64,000 bases of DNA from an uncultured Negativicutes bacterium. GTDB lineage: Bacteria; Bacillota; Negativicutes; JBAXTZ01. This document shows positions 707-39,784 of the stretch, piece by piece. Under the pieces are notes generated by a model, which saw nothing but the letters and a program-made list of their open reading frames with translations, searched no databases and had not been told where the DNA came from. A program made the position numbers and the translations under genes. Where the stretch lies: contig CAVRJL010000016.1 in the NCBI GenBank assembly GCA_963721525.1, forward strand, positions 32,001 through 96,000, given 5' to 3'. Within the stretch, counting starts at the first letter, position 1, and each line of letters begins with the position of its first letter.

Positions 707-781
707 TTATTCGAAAAAATAATTTTGAAACTTAGTCTTTTCCCCATAGTGAATATTTACTATTAGGTAGTAAATACTCAG

Positions 782-1161
782 TATATAACTACCTCTATTT
801 CTTCAGGTATTGATCTATTTATAGGAACAGATCTTGGTTGAAGTTTTCAACTGCTGGTAGTTGCTACAGACGATAATATGCCGATGGAGTCATAAATGAA
901 TATAAAGGATAGTCTCTTATCCTTGAATATTGGCGCTTATGTCCAACTTTTCCTCATCTACAAGTTAATGCTGACACAATTTTTAGTAATGCTCAAAATA
1001 ATAAAATCCATATTAAAATCCGCTATAATTTAGGGGCCTTACTACAACCAGCGATAGTGATAGAAAATTAACAAAATAAAGCAGTTCCGGTAAATTTAAA
1101 AAACATTAGCTATAAAATGATACAATCTGTACAACGTAACAATTTAATAAATGTGCTATAC
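782..1161 (+). pseudogene. Relic of inverse autotransporter (invasin/intimin-type) beta-barrel domain, C-terminal half
   Basis: Manual translation SSGIDLFIGTDLG / YRR*YADGVINEYKG*SLILEY...IHIKIRYNLG...YKMIQSVQRNNLINV resembles the barrel end motif VxRNNxI; internal stops and a frameshift. Confidence 0.45.
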
Positions 1162-1740
1162 ACCTTCCTAATAATTAATATATTTTTACTACAATAAAAA
1201 AGGATCTACTTCTTTTTTTTATCTCAACTAATTATTGTAACTAGATCAATAGTAAATATTAATGTTATTATAGAAGGAGTATAAAACTATAAGGTAACAA
1301 TGAAGCTAAAATTCAATTATTATGAGAAAAATGAGGAATAAACACAAGTTAAGTATACATATATTTATAAATGTATATACTTATTAATATATATTGTAAG
1401 AGGAGTTCTTGTATATTCAGACATATATTTAAAAATTAGTATTTGCATTAAGACGTATTATAAGCTATAAGATTAGCATAAATTCAAGTTCTACTAATAA
1501 GTACTTTGCCGAAGTGGAACTTATTTTTAGTAGTATTTTTATATACTTTATTCACTTAAAAAAGATGTAATTTTATCTTATTATTCACTTTGCTGAGAAA
1601 GTACTCATAAGAAATACAAACACGATACAAAATTTTTGGGATTAGGAAATAAATTAAAAGCTTTAGAATAAATTCCCTTAAAATAGGTTTTTTAAATTAA
1701 ACACAGTCTTTGAAAATATGTTAAATTTATCCAAAATAAA

Positions 1741-1905
1741 AATAAAACAGAAAAATTAATAAATGAATTATCTAAAATTAAAATAAATTATTTTATGAAA
1801 ACTATGGCAAAGGAATATAAAAATCCGAACGAAGCATTAAAAAATAATAGAGTATAATTTCACTATAATGTACAAGAGATTATAGAAGATATAAAAATGA
1901 AGTAA
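1741..1905 (+). pseudogene. Relic of phage/mobile-element toprim primase C-terminal segment
   Basis: TEKLINELSKIKINYFMKTMAKEYKNPNEALKNNRV*F resembles the toprim YKDPNEAL motif; internal stop, no intact start. Confidence 0.4.
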
Positions 1906-2122
1906 TAGATAAATGTAATTAAATAAAAGAAAACTATCTGCTACAAAATTCAATAAAATGGTATATGCACGAATTTATACTAGAAGCTGAATTATTCTCT
2001 TTAAATAAGATAATTAGAATAGATGATAAAAACCGTAATGTATAATATGTGTTTAATTTGATTTTTTATAAAAACTTCTAAAATATATTGAAAATCGTTG
2101 TTAAAGTAGTATAATAAAGTTG

Positions 2123-2322
2123 AGCCTGACAGAAAGCTTAGGAGAGAGTCCGATGACACAGAATAACTCAAAACTAACATAGTTAGACCAACTCAATGTG
2201 TTTGTAAAATAAACGAGAAGCAATATTAAGAATGGATACTGATGAATGTGTTTAAGAGTGTGGCTGAATAAGCGAGGTTGATGATCGAAATTAAATATCT
2301 TAGTCAAGTTTTCTGTTAGGCT
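2123..2322. mobile_element. MITE-like, internally deleted IS remnant (200 bp)
   Basis: 17-bp terminal inverted repeats agcctgacagaaagctt (2123-2139) and aagttttctgttaggct (2306-2322) with 2 mismatches; RBS-like ggagag + ATG just inside the left end; no intact transposase. Confidence 0.5.
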
Positions 2323-2341
2323 ATTTTAAGTGAATTATTAA

Positions 2342-2386
2342 TAATAGTCCAGATGATAAAAGCTGTTTTTATCGTCTGGACTATTA
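2342..2386. terminator. Long hairpin (20-bp arms, 5-nt loop), probable terminator
   Basis: taatagtccagatgataaaa-gctgt-ttttatcgtctggactatta, one G:U-compatible mismatch. Confidence 0.55.
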
Positions 2387-2968
2387 AATATTTAGAGTAA
2401 TACTAAACAGTATATATATTGATTTGTTAGGGATATAATTAAGTTCGGAATAGCAGCGCAAGCTCCTGGCGATGTACTATGGATAGTCACGCAAGATGAA
2501 ATCAGTAAGACTAGGACTTGAGCGGACTGACAAGCAATATAAAAGCAATAGCAAAGCATGCAAATTCAGAGGAGCATTTCGAGATAGGCAAAACAATCAT
2601 TAGGTAAATTAGAATACAACCCTCGTGCTAACTTGTTTAATGGTTATGGGTTAAATAGACAAGAGACGTCGCTAATTTTAAAATTAAGAAATAAAATTGA
2701 GACTAGAAATACGATACAGATAATGATTTTTGCTATGAGTAAGTATTACTGGGCTTACGGATTATCTATTGACAAAACGTTACACAAATCAATGTTCTAA
2801 AACGACCTATATATGCACCTATATACGCGTTATCGAAAGATTAACTACCAAAACAGTTATGGATAGATCGTTGATTATACGAATGAAGGATGGTTAATGC
2901 TGACAAATACCTATAGGTTAGATTATACATTCGAAGAAATATCTTTAGCAATGAGAATTCAAGAAGGT

Positions 2969-3514
2969 GGTTTGATTTCAAATTGGTTAACTTTTGGAGA
3001 TGTTGCTTATGAGTTTCTAAAAGCGACAGACTTTCGCGAACACTTAGCGAATCTCGTTAACTTCTAGCTTATATGATTGTGTGTGAAAAACATGATAATA
3101 TGCGCGGTATTGTACCAATTGAAGCTGAACTGTTAGCTGTTGACGTAGATAGTACAGCTCAACGATTTTTATTAGGCCATTAGAGTATGAGGCGAACGGT
3201 TAACAAGTTGGATGAATTATGGTTATTGCAAAACTTAGAACGAAATAAGAGAATTAATTGTCGATAGTTATTTCCCTAATAAGAACGGAGAAGCACATTC
3301 AGTAGCTTTGTGTTTTATTGATTCCGGCTTTCGCACTAGACGAAGTATGTGACTTTTTTTATGTACTCAGACGTTTACTATCTATCTAAAGAAGCGCTCA
3401 TCCGTTAAGATAACGATTATTTAGCACATCGAATATCGATAGAATGCTATATACGGAATTAAACTGTATATAATTAATATTTATGTGTTTAAAGATTTCA
3501 TTAATGGAAGATGA
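2969..3514 (+). pseudogene. Phage terminase large subunit (GpA-like) relic
   Basis: Fragments GLISNWLTFGDVAYEFLKATDFREHLANLVNF*L, RGIVPIEAELLAVDVD/VQLNDFY*AIRV*GERLTSW, VALCFIDSGFRT, KLYIINIYVFKDFINGR match GpA nuclease-domain motifs in order; stops and frameshifts. Confidence 0.8.
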
Positions 3515-3738
3515 TATGTTGCTGTAGATTGCGAACAATGAGTAAATGCACAAAATGAAAAAATTATGCCAAAAAATAGACAGAATAAGGGATTAATTAA
3601 TATCAATATTTAATATTTTTTTAATTCATCAGGTTTAATACTTTTTTAATCATATAAAAAATTTTTTAAGATGATTTCCTGCTTAACTTTATTTTTCTCT
3701 GTTTTATTAAAAACTTTTATAATCTTTTATTTTATTTC

Positions 3739-6387
3739 TTATAAAGATTTTTCTTTACTAAGCACTGCTTGTGCTGCTGCTAATTTTGCTATGGGAATTC
3801 TAAAAGGGGAACAAGATATAGAATCTAAGCCAATATCATGACAAAATTGAATTGAATTTGGATCTCCACCATGTTCTCCACAAATTCCTATTTGTAAATT
3901 AGGACGGGTTTTTTTCCCTTTTTCAGTTGCTATTTTCATTAATTGGCCAACCCCTTTACGATCTAAGGTTATGAAGGGATTTTCTTTAAATATTTTTTTA
4001 TTTATGTAATCATTCATGAATTTTCCTTCAGCATCGTCTCTACTAAATCCTAAAGTTGTTTGTGTTAAATCATTTGTACCAAAACTAAAAAAATCGGAAA
4101 CTTCAGCGAGTTCATCTGCTAAAAGTGCAGCTCTAGGTAATTCAATCATTGTACCTACTTTATAAGTAAATTTAATTGAGTTTTCTTCTTGAATTTTTTT
4201 TGCAATAATATTGATTTTTTCTTTAAAAAAAATCATTTCATTAATGTCAATAGTTAAAGGTATTTCGATTTCAGGATAAGGATAAAATCCTTCTTTTTTT
4301 AAAAGTGCTGTAGCATTAAAAATAGCTTGAACTTGCATTTCATAAATTTCAGGCCAACTGATTCCTAAGCGACATCCCCTATGGCCTAACATTGGATTAT
4401 TTTCTTGTATAGATTGTATTTTCTCCCATAATTTTTCTAAAATGGGTAATTTTTCTTTGTTTTTACTTGTTTCACGAATTAAAGCGATTTCTATTATAAC
4501 ATCATCATAGCGAGGTAAAAATTCGTGTAATGGGGGATCCAGTAACCTTATACATACAGGATAACCGTCCATTATCTTTAGTATATTATAAAAATCATTT
4601 TCTTGAAAAGATAAAAGCTTTGCTAGCGCTTGTAAACGTTGTGTTGAGTTTTCGGCCAGTATCATTTCTTGAATATAAGGTAGACGCTCTGCTCCTAAAA
4701 ACATGTGCTCAGTACGAGTAAGCCCAATACCTATAGCACCAAATTCACGAGCTTTTAAAGCATCTTCAGGTGTATCCGCATTAGCTCGTATTTGTAGAGT
4801 TCTTATACTATCTGCCCAACTGAGAATTTTTAAACATTCAGGAGAAAACTTAGATTTGATTAAAGGTAAATTTCCCATAATAACTTTTCCGCTAGTACCA
4901 TCAATGGTTAGCATTTCCCCTTCTTTTATTATATAATTACCTATATATAATACCTTTTTTTCTATATCTATGGATAATGATTCGCAACCGCATACACAAG
5001 GTTTTCCCATACCTCTTGCCACCACTGCTGCATGTGAAGTCATTCCCCCATGAATAGTAAGTATTCCTTCGGCTGCATGCATCCCATGTATATCATCCGG
5101 ATTTGTTTCTTTGCTTACAAATATTGTTTTTATATCTCTTTCAGCCATAATTTTTGCCTCATCAGCAGAAAAAATAACTTTACCACATGCGGATCCTGGA
5201 GAAGCTGGCAATCCTATTGCAATAGGATTTATTTTTACTGAAGGGTCAAGTTGAGGATGTAAGAGCTGGTCAAGTTGATTAGGTTTAATTGAAAGTAAGG
5301 CTTCTTCTTTTGTAATTATTCCTTCTTTTTGTAAATCGTAAGCAGTTTTAATAGTAGCATGAGCACTCATTTTTCCATTTCTTGTTTGTAAAAGAAAAAG
5401 ATTTCCTTTTTCTATTGTAAATTCAATATCTTGAACATTTTTATAATATTTTTCCAATTTTTTTGCAATTTCCAAAAGTTCTTCATAAATTTGTGGCATA
5501 TCTATATTTAAGTCATTTATTTTTTTAGGAGTTCGTATACCAGCAACAACGTCTTCACCTTGAGCATTAAATAAGTATTCTCCATATAATGTGTTTTGTC
5601 CGTTGGATGGATTACGAGTAAAAGCAACTCCTGTGCCGGAATCGTTTCCCATATTACCAAATACCATTGTTTGTATATTTATTGCTGTACCTAAATTGTG
5701 ATCGATTTTATTAAGATTACGGTATATAATTGCTCGTTCATTATTCCAAGAATCAAATACTGCCTCAATTGCTAATTTTAATTGTTCTATAGGGTCATTA
5801 GGAAAATGTTTCCCCGTACATTTAAAAACGTGATTTTTGTAAATTTTTATTATTTTGCATAATGCTTTTTCGCTTAATTGTTGATCATAAGTTACGTTTT
5901 CTTGTTTTTTTGTATTCTCTAGTATATTTTCGAAATCATTTTTTGATATATTAAAAACAATATTAGAAAACATTTGAATAAATCTTCTATAGCAATCTAA
6001 CGCAAACCAACGATTGTTAGTTTGTTTTATTAAGCCTTTCACTGTTTTAGAGTTTATACCCAAATTTAAAATAGTATCCATCATACCCGGCATTGAAAAA
6101 ACAGATCCCGAGCGTACGGACAATAATAAAGGATTTTCAAAGTCGCCAAATACCTTATTAGTTTGTTTTTCAATAATTTGTAAATTTGCTTTAATTTCTG
6201 AAAGCAAATCAGCCGATAACTTGCAGTTCATAGAGTTATACTTATGGCAAGCTTCAGTAGTAACTATAAATCCAGGAGGTACTGGCAAACCGATTTTAGT
6301 CATTTCTGCCAAATTAGCTCCTTTGCTGCCCAATAAAGTTCGCATTTTTTTATTCCCTTCACGAAATAGATAAACATGTTTTGCCAT
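3739..6387 (-). CDS. ppdK: Pyruvate phosphate dikinase
   Basis: 882 aa; GxKGANLAEM, LLSVRSG, GGMTSHAAVVARG phospho-His motif, FSFGTNDLTQ, GICGEHGG. Confidence 0.98.
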   Translation of the reverse strand: MAKHVYLFREGNKKMRTLLGSKGANLAEMTKIGLPVPPGFIVTTEACHKYNSMNCKLSADLLSEIKANLQIIEKQTNKVFGDFENPLLLSVRSGSVFSMPGMMDTILNLGINSKTVKGLIKQTNNRWFALDCYRRFIQMFSNIVFNISKNDFENILENTKKQENVTYDQQLSEKALCKIIKIYKNHVFKCTGKHFPNDPIEQLKLAIEAVFDSWNNERAIIYRNLNKIDHNLGTAINIQTMVFGNMGNDSGTGVAFTRNPSNGQNTLYGEYLFNAQGEDVVAGIRTPKKINDLNIDMPQIYEELLEIAKKLEKYYKNVQDIEFTIEKGNLFLLQTRNGKMSAHATIKTAYDLQKEGIITKEEALLSIKPNQLDQLLHPQLDPSVKINPIAIGLPASPGSACGKVIFSADEAKIMAERDIKTIFVSKETNPDDIHGMHAAEGILTIHGGMTSHAAVVARGMGKPCVCGCESLSIDIEKKVLYIGNYIIKEGEMLTIDGTSGKVIMGNLPLIKSKFSPECLKILSWADSIRTLQIRANADTPEDALKAREFGAIGIGLTRTEHMFLGAERLPYIQEMILAENSTQRLQALAKLLSFQENDFYNILKIMDGYPVCIRLLDPPLHEFLPRYDDVIIEIALIRETSKNKEKLPILEKLWEKIQSIQENNPMLGHRGCRLGISWPEIYEMQVQAIFNATALLKKEGFYPYPEIEIPLTIDINEMIFFKEKINIIAKKIQEENSIKFTYKVGTMIELPRAALLADELAEVSDFFSFGTNDLTQTTLGFSRDDAEGKFMNDYINKKIFKENPFITLDRKGVGQLMKIATEKGKKTRPNLQIGICGEHGGDPNSIQFCHDIGLDSISCSPFRIPIAKLAAAQAVLSKEKSL

Positions 6388-7162
6388 TTCTTAACCCCTT
6401 TATATTTTTACAAATTTTAAATGATATAAGTTAGTTGTAATTATATATAAAAAAATATTTGTATAGCAAGTTTTTATTGAAATTATCTTCCCCTATATTA
6501 AAAATAAAAAAATATATTTATAAATTAATTAATGATAGCACAACGTTTAAATTTTACATTATAGGCAAATAGAAAACTTATTGTGCTTATAATGTAAAAT
6601 TTCCATATGATTTTGAAAAAAATAAAATAAGCTATCATACGGATATAGGTTTTATAAAAAAGTTCTTTATGATTAATTTGGAAACTCTAATTTATTTTAG
6701 AAAGAAACTCGGACATTTCGGATATTAATGTTGATAAACGTAAACTTCCTTCTATTTTCTATTGTCAAAAAAGACCTTTTATCACATATTGAAATTGAAG
6801 TACCCATACTTTTTTAAGAGTTAAAAATAAAAATTGCCGGTACAAATAATATAATGGCATTTTCAAATATTTGATATTTTGTAGTATATTAAATCGTTGA
6901 AATAGTGAAGCAATTCTGTTAAAATAACAAGAGGTAAAAATGTTTTTAAAAAAACTATACTTTGAAAAATAATTAAAATTTATAGATTTTAGCGTAGTAT
7001 TTATTGAAAATTGTAGAAAAATAGGATATTATTTATAAATCATAATTTTTAATAAGTATTATAGTTTGCTAATTATTTATTTATCGTTGCTGTGTATGTC
7101 AAAAAACATTTTATCGTACATTTGGTTTTTATTTTTAAATTATTCTAAAATAGGAGTTGTTT

Positions 7163-7645
7163 ATGAAAAAAATATCATTGGTTTTACTAAGTTTCATATT
7201 TATTTTTACCGTTGCTGGTTGTGGGAAAACACAAGTAGGAATAGTTGACCAAGGAAAAATAATGAAAAATAGTGAGCACATGAAGCGAATTGGAGAGGAA
7301 TTTAGAAAAAAAGCTACAGATTTACAGGAAGAAGAATATAAAGCACGCCAAATGATAAAAGATGAAATTTCTAAACAGAAGAAAAATCAGGAAATTAGAA
7401 GTAAATGGGAAAAATTACAGAGCGAGACACAACAAAAAGTATTTACAGAATTAAAAGCAGCTGTACAAACTATTGCTAAAGAAAAGGGGTTAGACATAGT
7501 TGCTGAAAACATGGTTATTTATACAACTGGAACAGATATCACAGACGAGGTTGTTAAAAGACTAGATGTAAATATTCAATCACAATTTCAATCTAAAGTT
7601 AAACCTAAAGAAGTACTCCCCGAAGGGAAAAAAGAGGAGATCTAA
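7163..7645 (+). CDS. OmpH/Skp periplasmic chaperone with lipoprotein-type signal
   Basis: RBS aggag; lipobox VAGC; VGIVD, coiled-coil middle, AKEKGLDIV and DITDEVVKRL motifs. Confidence 0.85.
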   Translation: MKKISLVLLSFIFIFTVAGCGKTQVGIVDQGKIMKNSEHMKRIGEEFRKKATDLQEEEYKARQMIKDEISKQKKNQEIRSKWEKLQSETQQKVFTELKAAVQTIAKEKGLDIVAENMVIYTTGTDITDEVVKRLDVNIQSQFQSKVKPKEVLPEGKKEEI

Positions 7646-7869
7646 GCAGAATAAAAAGTAATTATAATAAATAAAGTTGTTTATAGTGCTGTTTGTGGTA
7701 ACAAGAAGAGATTAAGCAGAGGATATTAGTTGAGTAAAATTAGGAATGCGCAGTAAGCTGAGAATATTTAAAGTTTCAATTACAGTGGGGTTTTCGAAAT
7801 TTAGAGTAGTTATTTGATTTAACTTTACCGTAAAATTGAATTGTATGACAGCTGTTGATTAAAAAAACG

Positions 7870-8042
7870 AAAGGCAATAGGTAATAATTTAAGAATCTTA
7901 TTCAGTAATTAGTTTTAATGTTTGAATAGGAAATAATATGATAATGAAACTTCATATGTAATTTTCTCAGGATTCGGGGTTTATTATGGTAGACAATAAA
8001 GTTGTAATCGGAAGTTTTACAAGTATTCATCAATTATATTAA
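7870..8042 (+). pseudogene. lpxA: Relic of UDP-N-acetylglucosamine acyltransferase LpxA
   Basis: Fragments KAIGNNLRILF, IGNNMIM and SGFIMVDNKVVIGSFTSIHQL (aligns to the LpxA motif AGHVxVxDxAxIGGxxxxHQF); position downstream of ompH as in Negativicutes outer-membrane clusters. Confidence 0.5.
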
Positions 8043-8189
8043 CAAAATCCATAATAAATGATGTTTAGTAAAAAATAAAGGGCTTGTGTTGTTGCGTTAT
8101 TTTTAAATGATGTAATAATGCTGAGCACTTTATTTTTTTGTATTATACCTCTCAGATAAATATCTATAATTAAGAGAAGTAAAGAGGGC

Positions 8190-8214
8190 TTTCACAAACT
8201 TTAAGTTTGTGAAA
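8190..8214. promoter_or_regulatory. Perfect inverted repeat upstream of permease (operator-like)
   Basis: tttcacaaactt-t-aagtttgtgaaa, 12-bp arms. Confidence 0.4.
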
Positions 8215-8247
8215 ATAGAGAAAAAAGTGGAATTGGAGGTAAAATTT

Positions 8248-9660
8248 ATGGGATTAATTATTGAAGAAAAACAGCTTAGGCGAGGATTAAAAAACCGTCA
8301 TATTCAATTTATAGCTTTAGGATTCATTATTGATAGCGGGTACTTTCTTGGTAATAGTTATGCTATTGAAAAAGCAGGACCGTTATCTATTTTAGGGTAT
8401 TTACTCGGAGGAATAATTGTCATGATGGTTATGCTTTGCTATCGTGAGCTTATGATATACAAACCTATTACTGGTTCATTTATCACTTATACTAAGGAAT
8501 TGGTATCGTCAACATGGGCGTGTGGTATTGGTTGGTGCTATTGGTTACAATGCGTTACCCCGTCTGAACCAATAGCTGCCGGTATGATTATGAACTTATT
8601 TATGCCTCGAATTGGAACGGTATGGTGGGCTGTATTTTTTTGTTTATTTGTTACAATTTTAAATTTATTTAAAGTGGAAGCTTTTGGAGAAGCTGAATTT
8701 TGGCTTTCTTTAACAAAAGTTGGAGCAATTATAGTTTTTAGTATTCTATCTGTATTTATTGGTTTAGGCTGGATTGGGGCTCAAGGTTATATAGGTATAA
8801 AATTACTTTTAGGAGACGGTGGTTTTGCTCCTAAAGGTTGGTTTTCTGTTTTTCTTGTTATGATGATAGTATTAGGAAATTATCAAGGAGCTGAAACTAT
8901 AGGATTAACTGCAGGCGAAAGTAAAAATCCACAAAAATCCTTACCAAAAGCTATTAAAAATGTAACTAATACTATTATAGGATTATATACCATACCTATA
9001 TTTTTATTATTAGTCATTTTCCCTTGGAGACAAGCTGCAATTTCAGAAAACGCTTTTAGTGAAGCGCTTGTAATTCATGGTTTCAGGTGGTTGGGTAGCG
9101 GTATTTCTTTTATTATTTTGATTACAGCTTTATCTGCAGCAAATAGTGATATGTATGCTTGTTCAAGGATATTATATTCTTTGCAAAAAGAAGGATTTGC
9201 TCCAAAATTTTTAGGGAAATTAAATATTAAAAATGTTCCACAAAATGCTACTATTATGTCTAATATAATAGCTTGGGTTTTTTTGGTGTTTTATGTATTA
9301 GATAAAAGTGGATTATTTTATGAACATCTCCTTTTATTAAGTGGATTTGCTGGAGAAATTGTGTGGATAAGCATTTGCATTGCCCAATTTCGTTTTCGTA
9401 AGAAGTACATAGCTTCAGGGCACAATATAGAAAAATTAAGAAACAAAACTCCCTATTTCCCATATCTTACATGGTTAGCAATACTAACACAGGCTGTTTG
9501 TTTATTAGCTATGCTTTTTTCTCAAGAAATGAGAGATACTTTAATTTTTGGAATGCTTACTATTTTATTAAGTTCATTAATTTATTATGGATACAAAAAA
9601 AAATGGGGAACTAGATTAGCGGCCATCATCAATACTATACTATTTTTTAATTTTAATTAA
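8248..9660 (+). CDS. Amino acid permease (APC superfamily, AAT/LysP-RocE-like)
   Basis: LRRGLKNRHIQFIALG, FGEAEFW, GLTAGESKNP, SAANSDMYACSRILYSL; RBS ggaggt before ATG 8248. Confidence 0.92.
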   Translation: MGLIIEEKQLRRGLKNRHIQFIALGFIIDSGYFLGNSYAIEKAGPLSILGYLLGGIIVMMVMLCYRELMIYKPITGSFITYTKELVSSTWACGIGWCYWLQCVTPSEPIAAGMIMNLFMPRIGTVWWAVFFCLFVTILNLFKVEAFGEAEFWLSLTKVGAIIVFSILSVFIGLGWIGAQGYIGIKLLLGDGGFAPKGWFSVFLVMMIVLGNYQGAETIGLTAGESKNPQKSLPKAIKNVTNTIIGLYTIPIFLLLVIFPWRQAAISENAFSEALVIHGFRWLGSGISFIILITALSAANSDMYACSRILYSLQKEGFAPKFLGKLNIKNVPQNATIMSNIIAWVFLVFYVLDKSGLFYEHLLLLSGFAGEIVWISICIAQFRFRKKYIASGHNIEKLRNKTPYFPYLTWLAILTQAVCLLAMLFSQEMRDTLIFGMLTILLSSLIYYGYKKKWGTRLAAIINTILFFNFN

Positions 9661-12876: not shown

Positions 12877-14469
12877 ATGAAAAAAAAAATAATAGCGGCA
12901 ATATTAAGTGTTACTTTTACGATGAGCTTCAATTTAGTAGGTTGTGCTTATGCTTTAACAACTATAAGCCCCTTCAGTGATGTACCGAAAAGTAATTGGG
13001 CGTATAGTGCAGTAGAGGAGTTAGTAAAAAAGGGAATCATAGAAGTGGGTCCTGATAAAATGTTTCGAGGGAACCAAAATGTTACAAGATATGAACTAGC
13101 AGCCATAATTGTTAGGGCGGTTAGTTCTTACAAAGGAGCAGATAATCACAGTATCTCTCTATTAGAAAAACTTGTTAGAGAGTTTGCAGTAGAACTAAGA
13201 GATATTGAAATTCAGTCAAACAATTCACAAGTGCAAGTGAAAATGAAAGTGAAAAATTTAGAAAAAAAAGTGAATACACTACCTAAAGTCAGCGGAACTT
13301 TTTCGGTATTAAATTATACTACAATGAGTCAATTGGTTGACCTTTACGGAAGAACTGTTATAAATCCTAAGTGTGATGAGACCTTTTTTTCAACTAATAA
13401 ATTTAGGACAAATTTACAATTTAATGGAAACATTGATACAAAATGGAACTATATTGGCGAATTACAACTCGAATTACCTATGAACTATAAGGACTATGAA
13501 AATAACTCTAATGTGAACGCGCAGATGCGTAGTATTTGTGCAAACGGTAACTTTTGTAATGGATGTAAAGTGAATATAGGACGTTTTGGAGCTTCATCTA
13601 CTTTATTAAGTAATGGAGTACAAGGTTTACTGTATGGTGATAATCGTATTAACGGAGCGCGTTTAGTATATGAAAATAAAGGATTTAAAGCTGATATTTT
13701 TGGCGGATTTTCTGATGTTGGTATGCCTAGATATTATAGTATAGGAGGAATGGAGCGAGGAGCATTGGGTACAGGTTTTATGTTAGGTTATAGTGTTAAC
13801 GATATTGTTAATATATATGCAGGAATCAAGGAACATATAGGACATAATGCGCCACGTAAAAACAATCCTTACAGCAAAGAAACGTGGTCTCCTATTCAGC
13901 ATATAACATTTGCAGAGGGAGGTTTTGATATCAAACCAATTGAAAATGTTAAAATAAGCTCTTTGTTTGGCTGGTCCCCTAATATGAAAGACGAATATAT
14001 TTATTTGTGGAATGGAAAACCACACGGCTTTTTTCAAGCTCCTTTCCTTGAAAATCGTGGTTTTTATGATAATATAGCATGTATTGCACGTATAGATGTG
14101 GGGGATTTTGATTTACAAAAAAGATGGTCCTTAAACGCATATGGTCAATTTCATTACGCTGGGAAATATGCCATAATAAACAAGTATATACCTCTTAGCG
14201 TAGACGTAGATGGTTACGATTATGGTCATGGCAATGATGGAATTTGTTTAGGAAAAGAGGGGCGAGAAGCAGGTATGAACTTCGTTTTATTCAAAAATGT
14301 AAATTGGCATACTTTTGTAACTCAGACAAGTATGGAACCGACGCTAAATAGAATGGTGAGAGTGCCTTATTTAGTTACAAGAAAGGGCAAACTATCTTGG
14401 GATAGATTACACTATTGGGAAAGAGACCCTATTGTAACTGTAGGCTCGGAACTTAGTTTTTCTTTCTAA
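12877..14469 (+). CDS. S-layer-homology domain outer membrane beta-barrel protein (OmpM-like)
   Basis: Signal peptide; SLH motif PFSDVPKSNWAYSAV...FRGNQNVTRYELA; coiled coil LEKLVREFAVEL; beta-rich C-terminus ending in Phe. Confidence 0.88.
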   Translation: MKKKIIAAILSVTFTMSFNLVGCAYALTTISPFSDVPKSNWAYSAVEELVKKGIIEVGPDKMFRGNQNVTRYELAAIIVRAVSSYKGADNHSISLLEKLVREFAVELRDIEIQSNNSQVQVKMKVKNLEKKVNTLPKVSGTFSVLNYTTMSQLVDLYGRTVINPKCDETFFSTNKFRTNLQFNGNIDTKWNYIGELQLELPMNYKDYENNSNVNAQMRSICANGNFCNGCKVNIGRFGASSTLLSNGVQGLLYGDNRINGARLVYENKGFKADIFGGFSDVGMPRYYSIGGMERGALGTGFMLGYSVNDIVNIYAGIKEHIGHNAPRKNNPYSKETWSPIQHITFAEGGFDIKPIENVKISSLFGWSPNMKDEYIYLWNGKPHGFFQAPFLENRGFYDNIACIARIDVGDFDLQKRWSLNAYGQFHYAGKYAIINKYIPLSVDVDGYDYGHGNDGICLGKEGREAGMNFVLFKNVNWHTFVTQTSMEPTLNRMVRVPYLVTRKGKLSWDRLHYWERDPIVTVGSELSFSF

Positions 14470-14488
14470 CATTCGCTAATTGTTAACA

Positions 14489-17034: not shown

Positions 17035-17229
17035 GTAGTCGATTGTTTAATATATTTTAACTACTATTTATATCTTTTTTTAAGAGTAGTTTTTGTTATT
17101 TTTTTAATTTTATTAATATAATTAATGATATAAAAACTATCGGGGAATATTGCAACTAATAATAAATTGCTTTTTTAATGAAATAGAAATTTTTTATTAT
17201 ATAATATAATAATATTTTTGGAGAAAATA

Positions 17230-18360
17230 ATGGATAAGACAATAATACAAATGATAAAAACTTTTTTATTATTTGTTATTATAGTTTCTTTAGCGCATAC
17301 TTCATTTGCAAAAGAAATAAACTTTAAAAAAGTAAATTCAATAAAATTAGAAACTACTAAAATTAAACCTGTACAAATTGTTAAAATTCGTTGGTCTGTT
17401 ATATCGAGAGTTAGTAGCATGAAGAAAATTCGCATAGTATGTGATTTATCAGGAACATATAGTTCCTGTGTAAATATAATTGGTAAAATAAATGAATTAA
17501 ATAATGTTTTAGAGGTACATTTAAATAATAGTGTTTTATCTCCAAAAATTTATTCTAAAATTATACTTAATTCGCAAATAGTTACTAGTTTTAGGTTTAT
17601 TGAAAATAAAAAAGATTTAATAATGAGAATACTTTTAACAAAAAAAATACAAAAAAATGATTATACTTTTTTTATTTTAAAAGAGGATCAACTACTAAAA
17701 AAACCTTGTCGTTTAGTAGTTGATATTACTAAACTAATTCCTCAAACTAAACTTATGTTCAACTCACGTCTCGAAGGGAAATCTATTTGTATTGATCCTG
17801 GCCATGGAGGTAGTGATTGCGGAGCTATAGGTATAGACAAAACTTTTGAAAAAGATATCACCCTTCCAATTTGTTTAGAACTAAAAAATATTTTAGAACA
17901 GCAAGGCATAAATGTTATTATGACTCGTGAAATAGATAAGGATGTTTTTTCTCTTAACTCTGTGGGCATCGATGAGCTACAGTCAAGGGTTAATATTGCG
18001 AATAATAACAAAACAGATTTATTTATCTGTGTTCATGCCAATTCTTATATAGATACTAATGTACATGGAGTTTCGACCTTTTATTATCCAAAAACAAATT
18101 TAGATAGTATTTTAGCAGGATATGTTCAAAAAGAATTTATAAATATTCCCCAATTAAGCGATCGAGGTATTAATAGAGCAAACTTTTATGTATTGAGATA
18201 TAGCAAGATGCCAGCTATTTTATTAGAAACAGGATTTATAAGTAATAAAAATGATTGCAAACAATTAATAACTAAAAATTTCCAAAAAATAATAGCACTA
18301 AGTATTATGAAAGGCGTAGTAAAGTTTTTTTATGATATATCGGATACAATTAAAAGTTAA
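17230..18360 (+). CDS. N-acetylmuramoyl-L-alanine amidase (Amidase_3) with N-terminal AMIN-like region
   Basis: Signal peptide; RLVVDI; IDPGHGGSD, EKDITL, FICVHAN, MPAILLETGFISN. Confidence 0.92.
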   Translation: MDKTIIQMIKTFLLFVIIVSLAHTSFAKEINFKKVNSIKLETTKIKPVQIVKIRWSVISRVSSMKKIRIVCDLSGTYSSCVNIIGKINELNNVLEVHLNNSVLSPKIYSKIILNSQIVTSFRFIENKKDLIMRILLTKKIQKNDYTFFILKEDQLLKKPCRLVVDITKLIPQTKLMFNSRLEGKSICIDPGHGGSDCGAIGIDKTFEKDITLPICLELKNILEQQGINVIMTREIDKDVFSLNSVGIDELQSRVNIANNNKTDLFICVHANSYIDTNVHGVSTFYYPKTNLDSILAGYVQKEFINIPQLSDRGINRANFYVLRYSKMPAILLETGFISNKNDCKQLITKNFQKIIALSIMKGVVKFFYDISDTIKS

Positions 18361-37005: not shown

Positions 37006-37835
37006 ATGATGGCTCTTAAAACTTTTAAACCAACATCTAAAGGTAGACGTTTTATGAGTGTTGCTGATTTTTCCGATATTACTGCAACAAAGCCGGAACG
37101 TTCTTTAGTAGTTAAATTAGATAAACATGGTGGGAGAAATCACCAGGGGCGTTTAACTGTGCGTCATCAGGGTGGAGGCGCTAAAAGAAAATATAGAATT
37201 ATTGATTGGAAAAGGAATAAGGAAAATATAATTGCTAAAATAGCAACTATTGAATACGATCCTAATCGTTCCGCCTATATTGCTTTATTGCATTATATGG
37301 ATGGAGAAAAGCGTTATATTTTAGCGCCTAATGGAATAAGAGTCGGAGACATTGTATTAAGTGGAAACGAAGTTGATATTAAGATAGGAAATTGTTTACC
37401 TCTTAAAAATATTCCTGTAGGTAGTACTGTCACAATATGGAAATGAAAATAGGCAAGGGGGCTGAAATGGTACGTTCTGCAGGGTCTTTTGCTCAACTTA
37501 TGGCGAAAGAAGGGAAATATGCTTTATTGCGTTTGCCTTCAGGAGAACAACGTAAAGTTCACTTTAATTGTAGAGCGACTATTGGACAAGTGAGTAACAT
37601 TAATCATGAAAATATTACTATTGGGAAAGCTGGACGAAATCGTTGGTTGGGGAAAAGACCTGAAAATCGCGGAACCTCAATGAATCCTTGCGATCATCCT
37701 CATGGTGGGGGAGAAGGGCGTTCTCCAATAGGTCGGAAACATCCCGTTACTCCTTGGGGAAAATGCGCAATGGGAGCGAAAACTCGGCATAAAAAACTTT
37801 CTGATAAGATGATAGTGTCTCGACGTGTAAAATAA
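37006..37835 (+). CDS. rplB: 50S ribosomal protein L2, split by a 1-nt deletion near 37431 (probable sequence error)
   Basis: Two ORFs (37006-37446, 37437-37835) give contiguous L2: IEYDPNRSA ... [13 protein letters not shown]. Confidence 0.93.
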
Positions 37836-38494: not shown

Positions 38495-39157
38495 GTGGGG
38501 CAAAAGGTAAATCCGCATGGATTAAGAATAGGAATTATAAAATCTTGGGATGCTAAATGGTACGCAGATAAAGATTTTGCGAAATATTTGCATGAAGATA
38601 TAAAGATTCGTAATTTATTAAAGAAGAAATTATATACTGCTGGAATTTCTCGCGTTATTATAGAACGTAATGGAAATCGTCTTAAAGCCACTATTTTCAC
38701 AAATAAACCAGGTATAATTATAGGACGAAGCGGTGCAGGTATAGAAGAAATAAAAAAAAATATAGGTCAATTTACTGACCATAATATAGAAGTGCAAATT
38801 CAAGAAATAAAACAAATTGACTTGGATGCAGTGTTAGTAGCACAGTTTATTGCTGCTCAATTGGAAAAAAGAATAGCATTTCGTCGTGCTATGAAACAAG
38901 CTGTGATACGAACTATGCGTGCTGGTGCTAAGGGAATAAAAGTTATGGTAAGTGGTCGTTTGGGAGGAGCAGAGATAGCTCGAAATGAGCTATATAGAGA
39001 AGGAAGTATTCCTCTTCACACGTTGCGTGCAAATATCGACTATGCTATTGCACAAGCGCATACTACTTATGGTATTATTGGCGTAAAAGTATGGATATAT
39101 AAAGGTGAAATTTTGCCTCAAAAAAAAATTCTTTCTGCTGAAGGAGGCAAACAATAA
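38495..39157 (+). CDS. rpsC: 30S ribosomal protein S3
   Basis: [28 protein letters not shown]. Confidence 0.98.
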
Positions 39158-39596
39158 TGCTTGTTCCAAAAAGAAGTAAATTTCGAAAACAATTTCGTGG
39201 TAGAATGGTTGGTAAAGCAAATAAAGGAAATAAAGTCTCTCATGGCGAATTTGGATTAACGGCTTTAGAACCGTCTTGGATCACAAATAGACAAATTGAA
39301 GCTGCTCGTATTGCGATGACACGTTATATTAAGCGTGGAGGACAAGTTTGGATAAAAATTTTTCCAGATAAACCTGTAACTGCAAAGCCAGCTGAAACTC
39401 GTATGGGTAGCGGTAAAGGTTCTCCAGAATATTGGGTTGCTGTGGTGAAACCAGGTAGGGTTATGTTTGAAATTGCTGGAGTGTCTGAAGAGGTTGCAAA
39501 AGAAGCATTTCGTTTAGCTGGTCATAAATTACCTATTAAAACAGGTTTTATTAAAAAAGAAACGGAAGGTGAAGTAGTGAAACAAATGAAAGTTAA
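39157..39596 (+). CDS. rplP: 50S ribosomal protein L16 (appears fused to L29 through a probable 1-nt deletion)
   Basis: [16 protein letters not shown]; adding one G in gtagtgaa restores EVGETNES* at 39594-39596. Confidence 0.93.
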
Positions 39597-39784
39597 AGAG
39601 ATCCGTGAAATGAACGATAATGAATTATTAGGAAAGTTGAATAAATTAAAAGAAGATCTTTTCAACTTACGTTTCCAACTTGCTATTGGGCAATTAGAAA
39701 ACTTTTCGCGAATACGTGAAGTAAAAAAAAGTATTGCTAGAATAAAAACTGTACAGCGTGAACAGTGAACTGAAACGCGCTTAG
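39586..39784 (+). CDS. rpmC: 50S ribosomal protein L29 (probable extra base near 39764)
   Basis: MKVKEIRE...LFNLRFQ...SIARIKTV; removing one base gives RERELKRA*. Confidence 0.92.

Follow-up and report, generated by a model that had tools for sequence, protein, structure and literature searches.

Negativicutes are diderm Firmicutes in which lipopolysaccharide (LPS) is normally made. In the published surveys, the lipid A genes are described as complete or universal in this class (PMC5007114, PMC13249872), and Acetonema is covered in PMC13018214. Among the Bacillota surveyed, LPS and BamA are reported to occur either together or not at all (PMC11448272, PMC13249872). The outer membrane is described as having been lost several times in the Firmicutes, with loss of the OmpM tether as the proposed trigger (PMC5007114; bioRxiv 2021.05.31.446380), and the latter source, which also deals with CsaB, gives OmpM as absent from Gracilicutes. 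In Veillonella parvula, an mlaD tamB mutant was reported as viable, and a second AsmA-like protein is mentioned there (PMC10665443). Outside the Firmicutes, Anaplasmataceae are stated to be without LPS but with BamA (PMC5481527), and reduced endosymbionts to retain TamB or YhdP whether or not LPS is present (PMC8593681). No LPS-free Negativicute was described in the literature searched, although published genome tables could list one.

The outer-membrane gene cluster known from Veillonella and Acetonema (PMC5007114, PMC10665443) forms the same ancestral block, in the same order, in the family relatives of the genome analyzed here. This genome, G000, is a Negativicutes assembly of 769,348 bases in 16 contigs, and the window, that is, the whole stretch of 64,000 nucleotides under analysis, corresponds to positions 32001-96000 of its contig C16. 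Two genomes of the same family, G001 (2.4 Mb) and G002 (3.4 Mb), were used for comparison. In both, the left part of the block reads ppdK, GH127, metallo-hydrolase, ompH, a 299-aa gene, ompH, lpxD, lpxC, fabZ, lpxA, lpxI, lpxB, and the right part msbA, kdtA, lpxK, kdsB, kdsA, kdsD, lipid A acyltransferase, lptC, lptA, lptB, lptF/G. Beyond lptF/G, two ompM genes preceded by a 279-aa gene were observed in G001. The initial annotation had stated that ompH normally lies beside lpx genes and fabZ in Negativicutes; both genomes contain the run ompH-lpxD-lpxC-fabZ-lpxA. In G000, the order was ppdK, a gap, ompH, 225 bp, an lpxA remnant, a permease, pth, a hydrolase, nadC, two tRNA-Ser and ompM. The main features of the window are as follows.

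3739..6387, minus strand: ppdK, the left syntenic anchor; 68% identical to ppdK of G001 and G002, in the same orientation upstream of the same block
6388..7156: AT-rich gap (GC 0.20), where the relatives carry GH127, the metallo-hydrolase, the first ompH and the 299-aa gene
7163..7645, plus strand: intact ompH (Skp-like chaperone with a lipobox-like signal); PF03938 E 2.5e-14, 43-44% identical to G001 and G002
7646..7870: collapsed interval of 225 bp; the relatives have about 2.7 kb here (lpxD, lpxC, fabZ and the 5' part of lpxA)
7871..8042, plus strand: lpxA pseudogene remnant, approximately residues 108-165, with a frameshift at 7925 and three internal stops
8209..9660, plus strand: amino-acid permease (Pfam)
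12877..14469, plus strand: ompM, the right anchor of the ancestral block; SLH E 7.7e-12, helical stalk, predicted 16-stranded barrel ending in Phe
17218..18360, plus strand: N-acetylmuramoyl-L-alanine amidase; PF01520 E 6e-52, 46% identical to the G002 orthologue

The ompH of the window was the orthologue of the relatives' ompH that precedes lpxD. Its distance to the lpxA remnant had shrunk from 2.7 kb in the same-family genomes to 0.23 kb, and its distance to ompM from 18 kb in the relatives to 5.2 kb of unrelated genes. In the collapsed interval, profiles of LpxD, LpxC, FabZ and OmpH scored at chance level (202, 237, 431 and 487 of 500 shuffles reached the score, respectively). A second decayed ompH at 7650-7779, hinted at by pairwise DNA alignment, was discarded, its score being equaled by 487 of 500 shuffles. 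In the AT-rich gap, a weak trace of the metallo-hydrolase was observed at about 6594-6650 (1 of 300 shuffles reached its score), while the other three gap families were at chance level.

The loss of lpxD, lpxC, fabZ and most of lpxA thus took place within one contig. The place of the genes from lpxI to lptF/G was occupied by the permease, pth, an alpha/beta hydrolase, nadC and the two tRNA-Ser genes, the permease and hydrolase being recognized by Pfam and pth and nadC from their translations. It is likely that the lpxI-to-lptF/G genes were also lost at this locus, although no scar of them remains and the gene order has been rearranged; LptF/G, LptA, LptB and the 279-aa gene gave no trace in the locus (42-206 of 300 shuffles reached the score). 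The first 21,000 positions of the window had a GC content of 0.22-0.38 and were free of foreign segments. Within them, a short antisense frame was the sole open reading frame of 80 aa in the 3 kb at 707-3738, which had no match among the proteins compared; decayed genes may perhaps lie there.

The remnant itself amounted to about 55 codons in two pieces. The peptide quoted in the initial annotation lies on the plus strand at 7926-8039, followed by a stop at 8040-8042, and a second piece in another frame at 7871-7924, beginning with KAIGNN and ending with CL, extends the LpxA match upstream over the one-base shift. The alignment to LpxA contained a 3-residue insertion, and the internal stops were located at 7910, 7916 and 7959. 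Identity to 15 intact Negativicutes LpxA proteins was 20-39%, compared with 60-71% for the same segment between intact LpxA proteins of different families. With its stops, the remnant reached 16.7 bits against the 231-bit cut-off of a functional LpxA, which has an open frame of about 260 aa. The histidine of the HVAH motif is catalytic in LpxA; the corresponding region of the remnant contained two stops and no histidine.

Among hexapeptide transferases, LpxA gave the best match, including the His-Gln motif. A frameshift-aware LpxA profile scored 60.9, a value reached by none of 2000 dinucleotide shuffles (maximum 46.1) and the highest among 594 intergenic strand-regions (297 regions, both strands), with the runner-up at 44.4. 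The LpxD profile scored 27.1, which was reached by 15 of 500 shuffles, and the NeuD-type (sugar) acetyltransferase profile 20.5, below the maximum of its null distribution (21.3, 120 shuffles). Pairwise scores were 37-71 for LpxA, 26-44 for LpxD, 19-41 for NeuD-type proteins and 49 for the GlmU of G000 itself. The curated model TIGR01852 matched 7896-8036 with E 1e-3, and its four other matches in G000 were GlmU and a gamma-carbonic-anhydrase-like protein. The position was also that expected for lpxA, downstream of the ompH-lpxD-lpxC-fabZ order and on the same strand.

The identification of the fragment downstream of ompH as a decayed lpxA was therefore confirmed at the sequence level, as was the description of it as stop-ridden and mostly deleted. 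The initial annotation had placed it at 7650-8045, an extent now narrowed to 7871-8042, and had regarded it as aligning residue for residue, whereas the match is gapped. Its statement that OmpH, the OmpM-like protein and the amidase are intact proved correct for all three; the amidase, however, is no outer-membrane marker. In G002, the amidase orthologue comes after tamB-bamA.

The completeness of G000 was rated at 81%, and approximately 20% of the genome is missing. The absence of tyrS, trpS, leuS, lysS and the native ileS shows that this incompleteness is real and makes the absence of any single gene weak evidence. One tetranucleotide signature was common to contigs C3, C5, C6, C11, C12, C15 and C16 (7 contigs, 579 kb). 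About 28 kb of foreign high-GC DNA was found at contig ends (C6 from about 90000, C15 from about 210000 and the first 6 kb of C16), leaving approximately 0.55 Mb; a fatty-acid desaturase and a second aspS in the foreign end of C15 were set aside. The true genome size is probably near 0.7 Mb, with about 500 genes. Contig C7 belonged to a second organism and carried the assembly's only ileS along with a further set of ATP synthase genes, C8 was phage-like (DnaB, gp32-like and intein-bearing polymerase genes), and for the short contigs C1, C2, C4, C9, C10, C13 and C14 a foreign origin is merely suspected.

The essential gene rplB was split by a one-base shift, so that lone frameshifts in G000 do not prove pseudogenes. 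Single-base shifts or fusions were observed in rplB, rplP/rpmC, the ligase gene described below, ugtP, wecB and atpG (window 37006-37835 and 39157-39768; C6:83989-85244; C15:113700-115000; C5); they are probably assembly errors, with slippage at A/T runs possible for some. On C15, mutS and mutL were joined in one 1460-aa frame (L072:6400-10779), either a true fusion or an assembly error. Contigs C15, C6 and C3 carried genes for lysine fermentation, purine and pyrimidine breakdown, [FeFe] hydrogenases with maturases, butyrate and acetate kinases, and the shikimate and MEP pathways, and the organism is likely an amino-acid and nucleobase fermenter that releases H2.

The nearest relatives of the G000 BamA were Negativicutes, and no second genome of the genus was present among the genomes searched. 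A metagenome scan with OmpH returned only two signal-peptide matches, and word-index searches yielded one other OmpM-like and two other GT9 proteins, in neither case with a sister genome.

Thirty-one family profiles, each built from 1-16 proteins of relatives, were run on all six frames of the whole assembly. No orthologue of the lipid A, Kdo, Lpt, MsbA, Mla, TolC, FabZ, FabF or FabD proteins was found; the top matches were known paralogues (GlmU, DAHP synthase, PlsC, ABC ATPases), the MsbA and LptB profiles matched solely the ATPase domains of other ABC transporters, and the OmpH control reached 102 bits. Curated models likewise found no LpxC, LpxB, LptF/G, KdtA, TamB, OEP/TolC, MlaD, FabF, FabD or PlsY in G000. 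TIGR01852 gave no match above its cut-off in G000, compared with 39 of 40 relatives, and the relatives scored for TamB (20/20), OEP/TolC (5/5, at several loci each) and MlaD (5/5).

No intact member of the lipid A and Kdo set of an LPS diderm (lpxABCDK, lpxI, waaA, kdsABCD), of MsbA with LptABC/FG or of mlaEFD-tolC-tamB was found in the 81% complete assembly. The AsmA model PF05170 found nothing in G000, but it is insensitive here, detecting neither of two family relatives. Partial family scans covered 148, 142, 133, 133 and 47 ORFs (with repeats and differing thresholds) of the 622 ORFs of at least 100 aa, most ORFs of the window being read by eye; within these scans, no secretin, flagellar or autotransporter family was seen.

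LpxC was present in 390 of 400 other genomes of the class, and none of the ten that lacked it had the pattern of G000. Four of them (G031, G074, G110, G206) kept lpxB and lptF/G and G076 kept lptF/G, while in G090 the block was cut by a contig end after lpxD. In G057, G064, G070 and G290, ompH of the block and bamA were also absent (by search only in G064 and G070). In genus g15, 4 of 12 genomes were without lpxC, and 3 of 12 (G057, G064, G070) were without lpxC, lptF/G, the block ompH and bamA; missing contigs are the most likely cause, although G057, with only about 20 contigs, is a candidate for true loss of the outer membrane.

Two further scars were located on other contigs. The C-terminal end of TamB, interrupted by stops, was recognized at C6:23601-23398 (L028), upstream of bamA and ending 3 bases before its start. 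It was the best TamB match in G000, with 24 of 68 residues identical to the G002 protein (E 1e-3) and its score reached by 4 of 2000 shuffles, and tamB lay upstream of bamA in all 58 loci with at least 5 kb of upstream flank. No other AsmA-type lipid bridge was found in G000, given the insensitive AsmA model. A 569-aa membrane protein without a Pfam family (L068:16880-18586, C15) was considered as a hidden bridge and rejected, as all its look-alikes belonged to Bacillota clusters without a name. Of FabF, the C-terminal end was found between acpP and rnc on C15, the place of fabF in the relatives (0 of 300 shuffles). As these scars and that of lpxA lie on different contigs, one missing contig cannot explain the pattern.

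The initial annotation had described lipid A and LPS as possibly being lost. Its point that no intact gene of this kind lies here held for the whole assembly, in which neither an intact lpxA nor any further gene of lipid A synthesis was found; the pathway, however, is already gone, together with Lpt, Mla, TolC, TamB and fatty-acid synthesis, a reach of loss that fits general genome reduction. The loss of LPS is old and not under way, and the organism very probably makes no LPS at all.

Proteins of the outer membrane itself were retained, as had been proposed. In addition to ompH and ompM, bamA was intact at C6:21500-23395, encoding a protein of 631 aa that has POTRA and Omp85 domains and ends in an aromatic residue, and its structural model (pLDDT 65, 5 sequences) matched BamA structures. 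Of 153 conserved columns, BamA kept 108, whereas the two loci closest to it kept 116 and 120. BamA and OmpH were 44% identical to their family orthologues, similarly to rnc and tsaE (44-46%). The OmpM model (pLDDT 76, 54 sequences) comprised the SLH domain, a helical stalk and 16 strands, with Veillonella OmpM1 as the best fold match (E 1.4e-18). A screen for barrel-type C-termini returned 12 proteins, and only BamA, OmpM and a PBP, the last a false positive, also had an N-terminal hydrophobic segment. An HtrA/DegP protease, csaB and peptidoglycan genes were also present.

Contigs of a public RNA library (X1) matched ompH (7323-7621, one contig, one difference) and ompM (13082-14477, three contigs) at 99-100%. 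They confirm both sequences independently, which is not proof of transcription, and as they do not span bamA or the remnant, they say nothing about these either way. Matches in runs X2 and X3 were mostly short and divergent. Beside bamA on C6, at the site of the deepest X1 contigs of that 20-kb stretch, a gene (L028:8009-9061) encoded an NlpC/P60 protein that carries a signal peptide and Pro- and Cys-rich tandem repeats, each about 76 residues long.

Genes for ADP-heptose synthesis (gmhA, hldA, hldD, gmhB-like, hldC) were found on C3 (C3:17944-21047, C3:4295-4762), 44-62% identical to Negativicutes orthologues; G001 and G002 had no hldD over the cut-off. A single GT9 protein (C16:12500-13618, 373 aa) was present, compared with 10-11 matches in G001 and G002. 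It fell below every heptosyltransferase cut-off and was only 21-29% identical to the relatives' GT9 proteins. An O-antigen-ligase-like gene (Wzy_C) was also kept; the ligase gene, gmhB and ugtP each had a frameshift or lacked an in-frame start, perhaps through assembly error. The wall-polymer set (C3:46466-53693, C15, C5, C6) consisted of DUF5693-csaB, an LtaS-family sulfatase with an orthologue in the LPS-core locus of the diderm G001, TagA-like, WecA-like and UgtP-like genes and a frameshifted wecB, and could provide the anchor of OmpM.

The retention of heptose genes, GT9 and ligase without Kdo-lipid A suggests another acceptor. ADP-heptose itself is reported as an immune signal in mammals (PMC10269868). 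With peptidoglycan and ADP-heptose genes both retained, the idea that loss of LPS could reduce recognition by a host is weakened and not supported.

Of lipid metabolism, G000 kept ACP, plsC, cdsA, pssA, psd and Aas adjoining LplT. Aas was 53% identical to family orthologues, and Aas with LplT lay close to acpP (C15 204170-207557; L078, L103). Neither fabZ, fabD nor plsY was found in G000, and fabF only as its scar. It appears that fatty-acid synthesis was lost and scavenging of fatty acids and lysophospholipids through Aas-LplT was left. Aas loads free fatty acids onto ACP, and the acyl donor of LpxA and LpxD is 3-hydroxyacyl-ACP, which comes from fatty-acid synthesis, so that loss of this synthesis would remove the substrate of LpxA.

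A possible order of events can be proposed from this gene content. A host-dependent lineage would have shifted to scavenged fatty acids and lysophospholipids; without chain elongation, no 3-hydroxyacyl-ACP would be formed and LpxA and LpxD would be left without a donor. The genes for lipid A, Kdo and Lpt would then become useless and be deleted, as would those for Mla, which maintains lipid asymmetry. OmpM would still depend on OmpH as its chaperone and on BamA for insertion; its SLH domain would go on linking the membrane to the wall, and its pore would admit solutes. We infer such substrate starvation; the reverse order or independent drift is also compatible with the data. Host dependence is probable, judging from the genome size, the GC content of 31% and the gene content.

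On balance, it is rather probable that an outer membrane was retained without LPS. Gene content predicts that this membrane, in a small-genome Negativicute, likely contains only BamA and the OmpM porin-tether. The fullest version, a real outer membrane without LPS or any known lipid delivery (Lpt, TamB/AsmA, Mla), with BamA and its sole substrate OmpM as the two barrels and possibly a heptose glycolipid, is put forward tentatively. Against an LPS-free membrane stand the 81% completeness, in view of which single absences weigh little, the rearranged lpxI-lptF/G region without a scar, the lack of a detected AsmA/TamB-type bridge (with a model that found 0 of 2 family relatives), a BamA drift slightly above that of the relatives, and the heptose synthesis, GT9 and ligase-like genes, which loss of LPS does not explain. 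The last of these would be accounted for if LPS had been replaced, with heptose added by the GT9 to another lipid, such as a UgtP-like glycosyl-diacylglycerol, and a glycan added by the ligase to give a lipid A-free glycolipid. This is compatible with an LPS-free outer membrane and draws on the five heptose genes, the single GT9, the Wzy_C ligase and the UgtP-like enzyme. It is nevertheless doubtful, as the GT9 scores below the heptosyltransferase cut-offs and has little identity to the relatives' GT9 proteins, the ligase, gmhB and ugtP reading frames are disrupted (possibly in error, as in the split rplB), no exporter is known, and heptose could alternatively go to a wall polymer or protein.

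The outer membrane might instead be vestigial or gone, with bamA, ompH and ompM lingering as the final genes to disappear on the way to a monoderm state. No known lipid-delivery system was found (Lpt, TamB, Mla and TolC are lost), BamA has drifted a little further than its relatives, and the LtaS-family, UgtP-like, TagA-like, TagO/WecA-like and csaB genes are usable for monoderm-type wall polymers. This is unlikely, however, since bamA, ompH and ompM are full length beside an lpxA at 20-39% identity and so have long outlasted it, and BamA and OmpH are as conserved as rnc and tsaE. Further, ompM and ompH occur on X1 contigs, the LtaS-family gene has its orthologue in an LPS-core locus of a diderm, and the V. 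parvula double mutant is reported as viable (PMC10665443).

That the lipid A block moved, or has a second copy in the unassembled fifth of an ordinary LPS diderm, is quite improbable. The incompleteness is real, the block drops out as one unit elsewhere (broken after lpxD in G090; absent from G057, G064, G070 and G290), some relatives have two lpxA copies, and the heptose and ligase genes would keep their usual use. But G001 and G002 each have one lpxA over the cut-off, a moved gene would leave no decayed middle piece at its old place, and the loss lies inside one contig of uniform GC, with tamB and fabF scars on others. The TolC-family genes, multi-locus in each relative, are all missing, and no source of 3-hydroxyacyl-ACP is evident.

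Hardly any credence is left for the view that the fragment after ompH arose by chance or through misassembly, or that it stems from a different hexapeptide transferase. The match is short, the curated model gave only E 1e-3, and pairwise DNA alignment favored a short stretch of G001 lpxD over lpxA. A DNA-level profile search (nhmmer) missed the remnant, because the relatives are GC-richer and the decay is too deep. G000 also has indel errors and foreign contig ends, and no read set spans the remnant. Against this, no shuffle reached the LpxA score, the region ranked first of 594 with strand and order right, the LpxD and NeuD-type profiles were at or near chance level, and large deletions combined with 20-39% identity are not the outcome of indel errors.

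Compared with the Negativicutes cluster (PMC5007114, PMC10665443), G000 likewise keeps the OmpM tether, OmpH, BamA and csaB, whereas lpxACDIBK, waaA, kdsABCD, lpt, msbA, mlaEFD-tolC and tamB, given as complete or conserved for the class in these papers, are absent or scars. Anaplasmataceae (PMC5481527) and Borrelia and insect endosymbionts (PMC8593681) are similar to G000 in having no lipid A genes, BamA, few outer-membrane proteins and a small genome; unlike G000, they are not Firmicutes and have no OmpM/SLH tether. As in these LPS-free diderms, the lipid A pathway is missing and BamA is present in G000, but no TamB/YhdP bridge was found with the insensitive AsmA model. Borrelia and the surveyed endosymbionts are reported to keep TamB or YhdP (PMC8593681), whereas tamB of G000 is a scar, and the retained heptose synthesis of G000 is a further difference from these groups.

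Thermotogae and the LPS-free Deinococcus-Thermus (PMC5007114) share with G000 a secondary loss of LPS within Terrabacteria and a retained SLH/porin-type tether. They are free-living, with larger genomes and ancient losses, whereas G000 is a scarred terminal branch inside an LPS-positive class. The atypical Gram-negative-staining Bacillota (PMC11448272) are reported, like G000, to be without lpxABCD and lptA, but they are also without BamA and OmpH and are monoderm; both genes are intact in G000, which keeps OmpM as well.

If the two-barrel, LPS-free membrane is real, no outer-membrane system in Firmicutes would be smaller, and its scars would document the sequence of losses, with LPS and lipid bridges first and the tether last. 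Phospholipids would have to arrive by a non-canonical route, for which there would be few candidates among about 500 genes. Loss of LPS is already familiar from symbionts with reduced genomes, and what happens in such a lineage need not repeat ancient free-living transitions. G000 may be seen as a possible snapshot of how outer membranes are lost, and may represent either a step toward the monoderm state or a stable end state.

LPS-free diderms are known elsewhere, and an LPS-free Negativicute is apparently a new case within the literature searched. G000 stands between the Bacillota with LPS and BamA and those with neither. Its order of loss is opposite to the tether-first scenario, LPS, Lpt, Mla and TamB being gone while OmpM, BamA and OmpH are kept.
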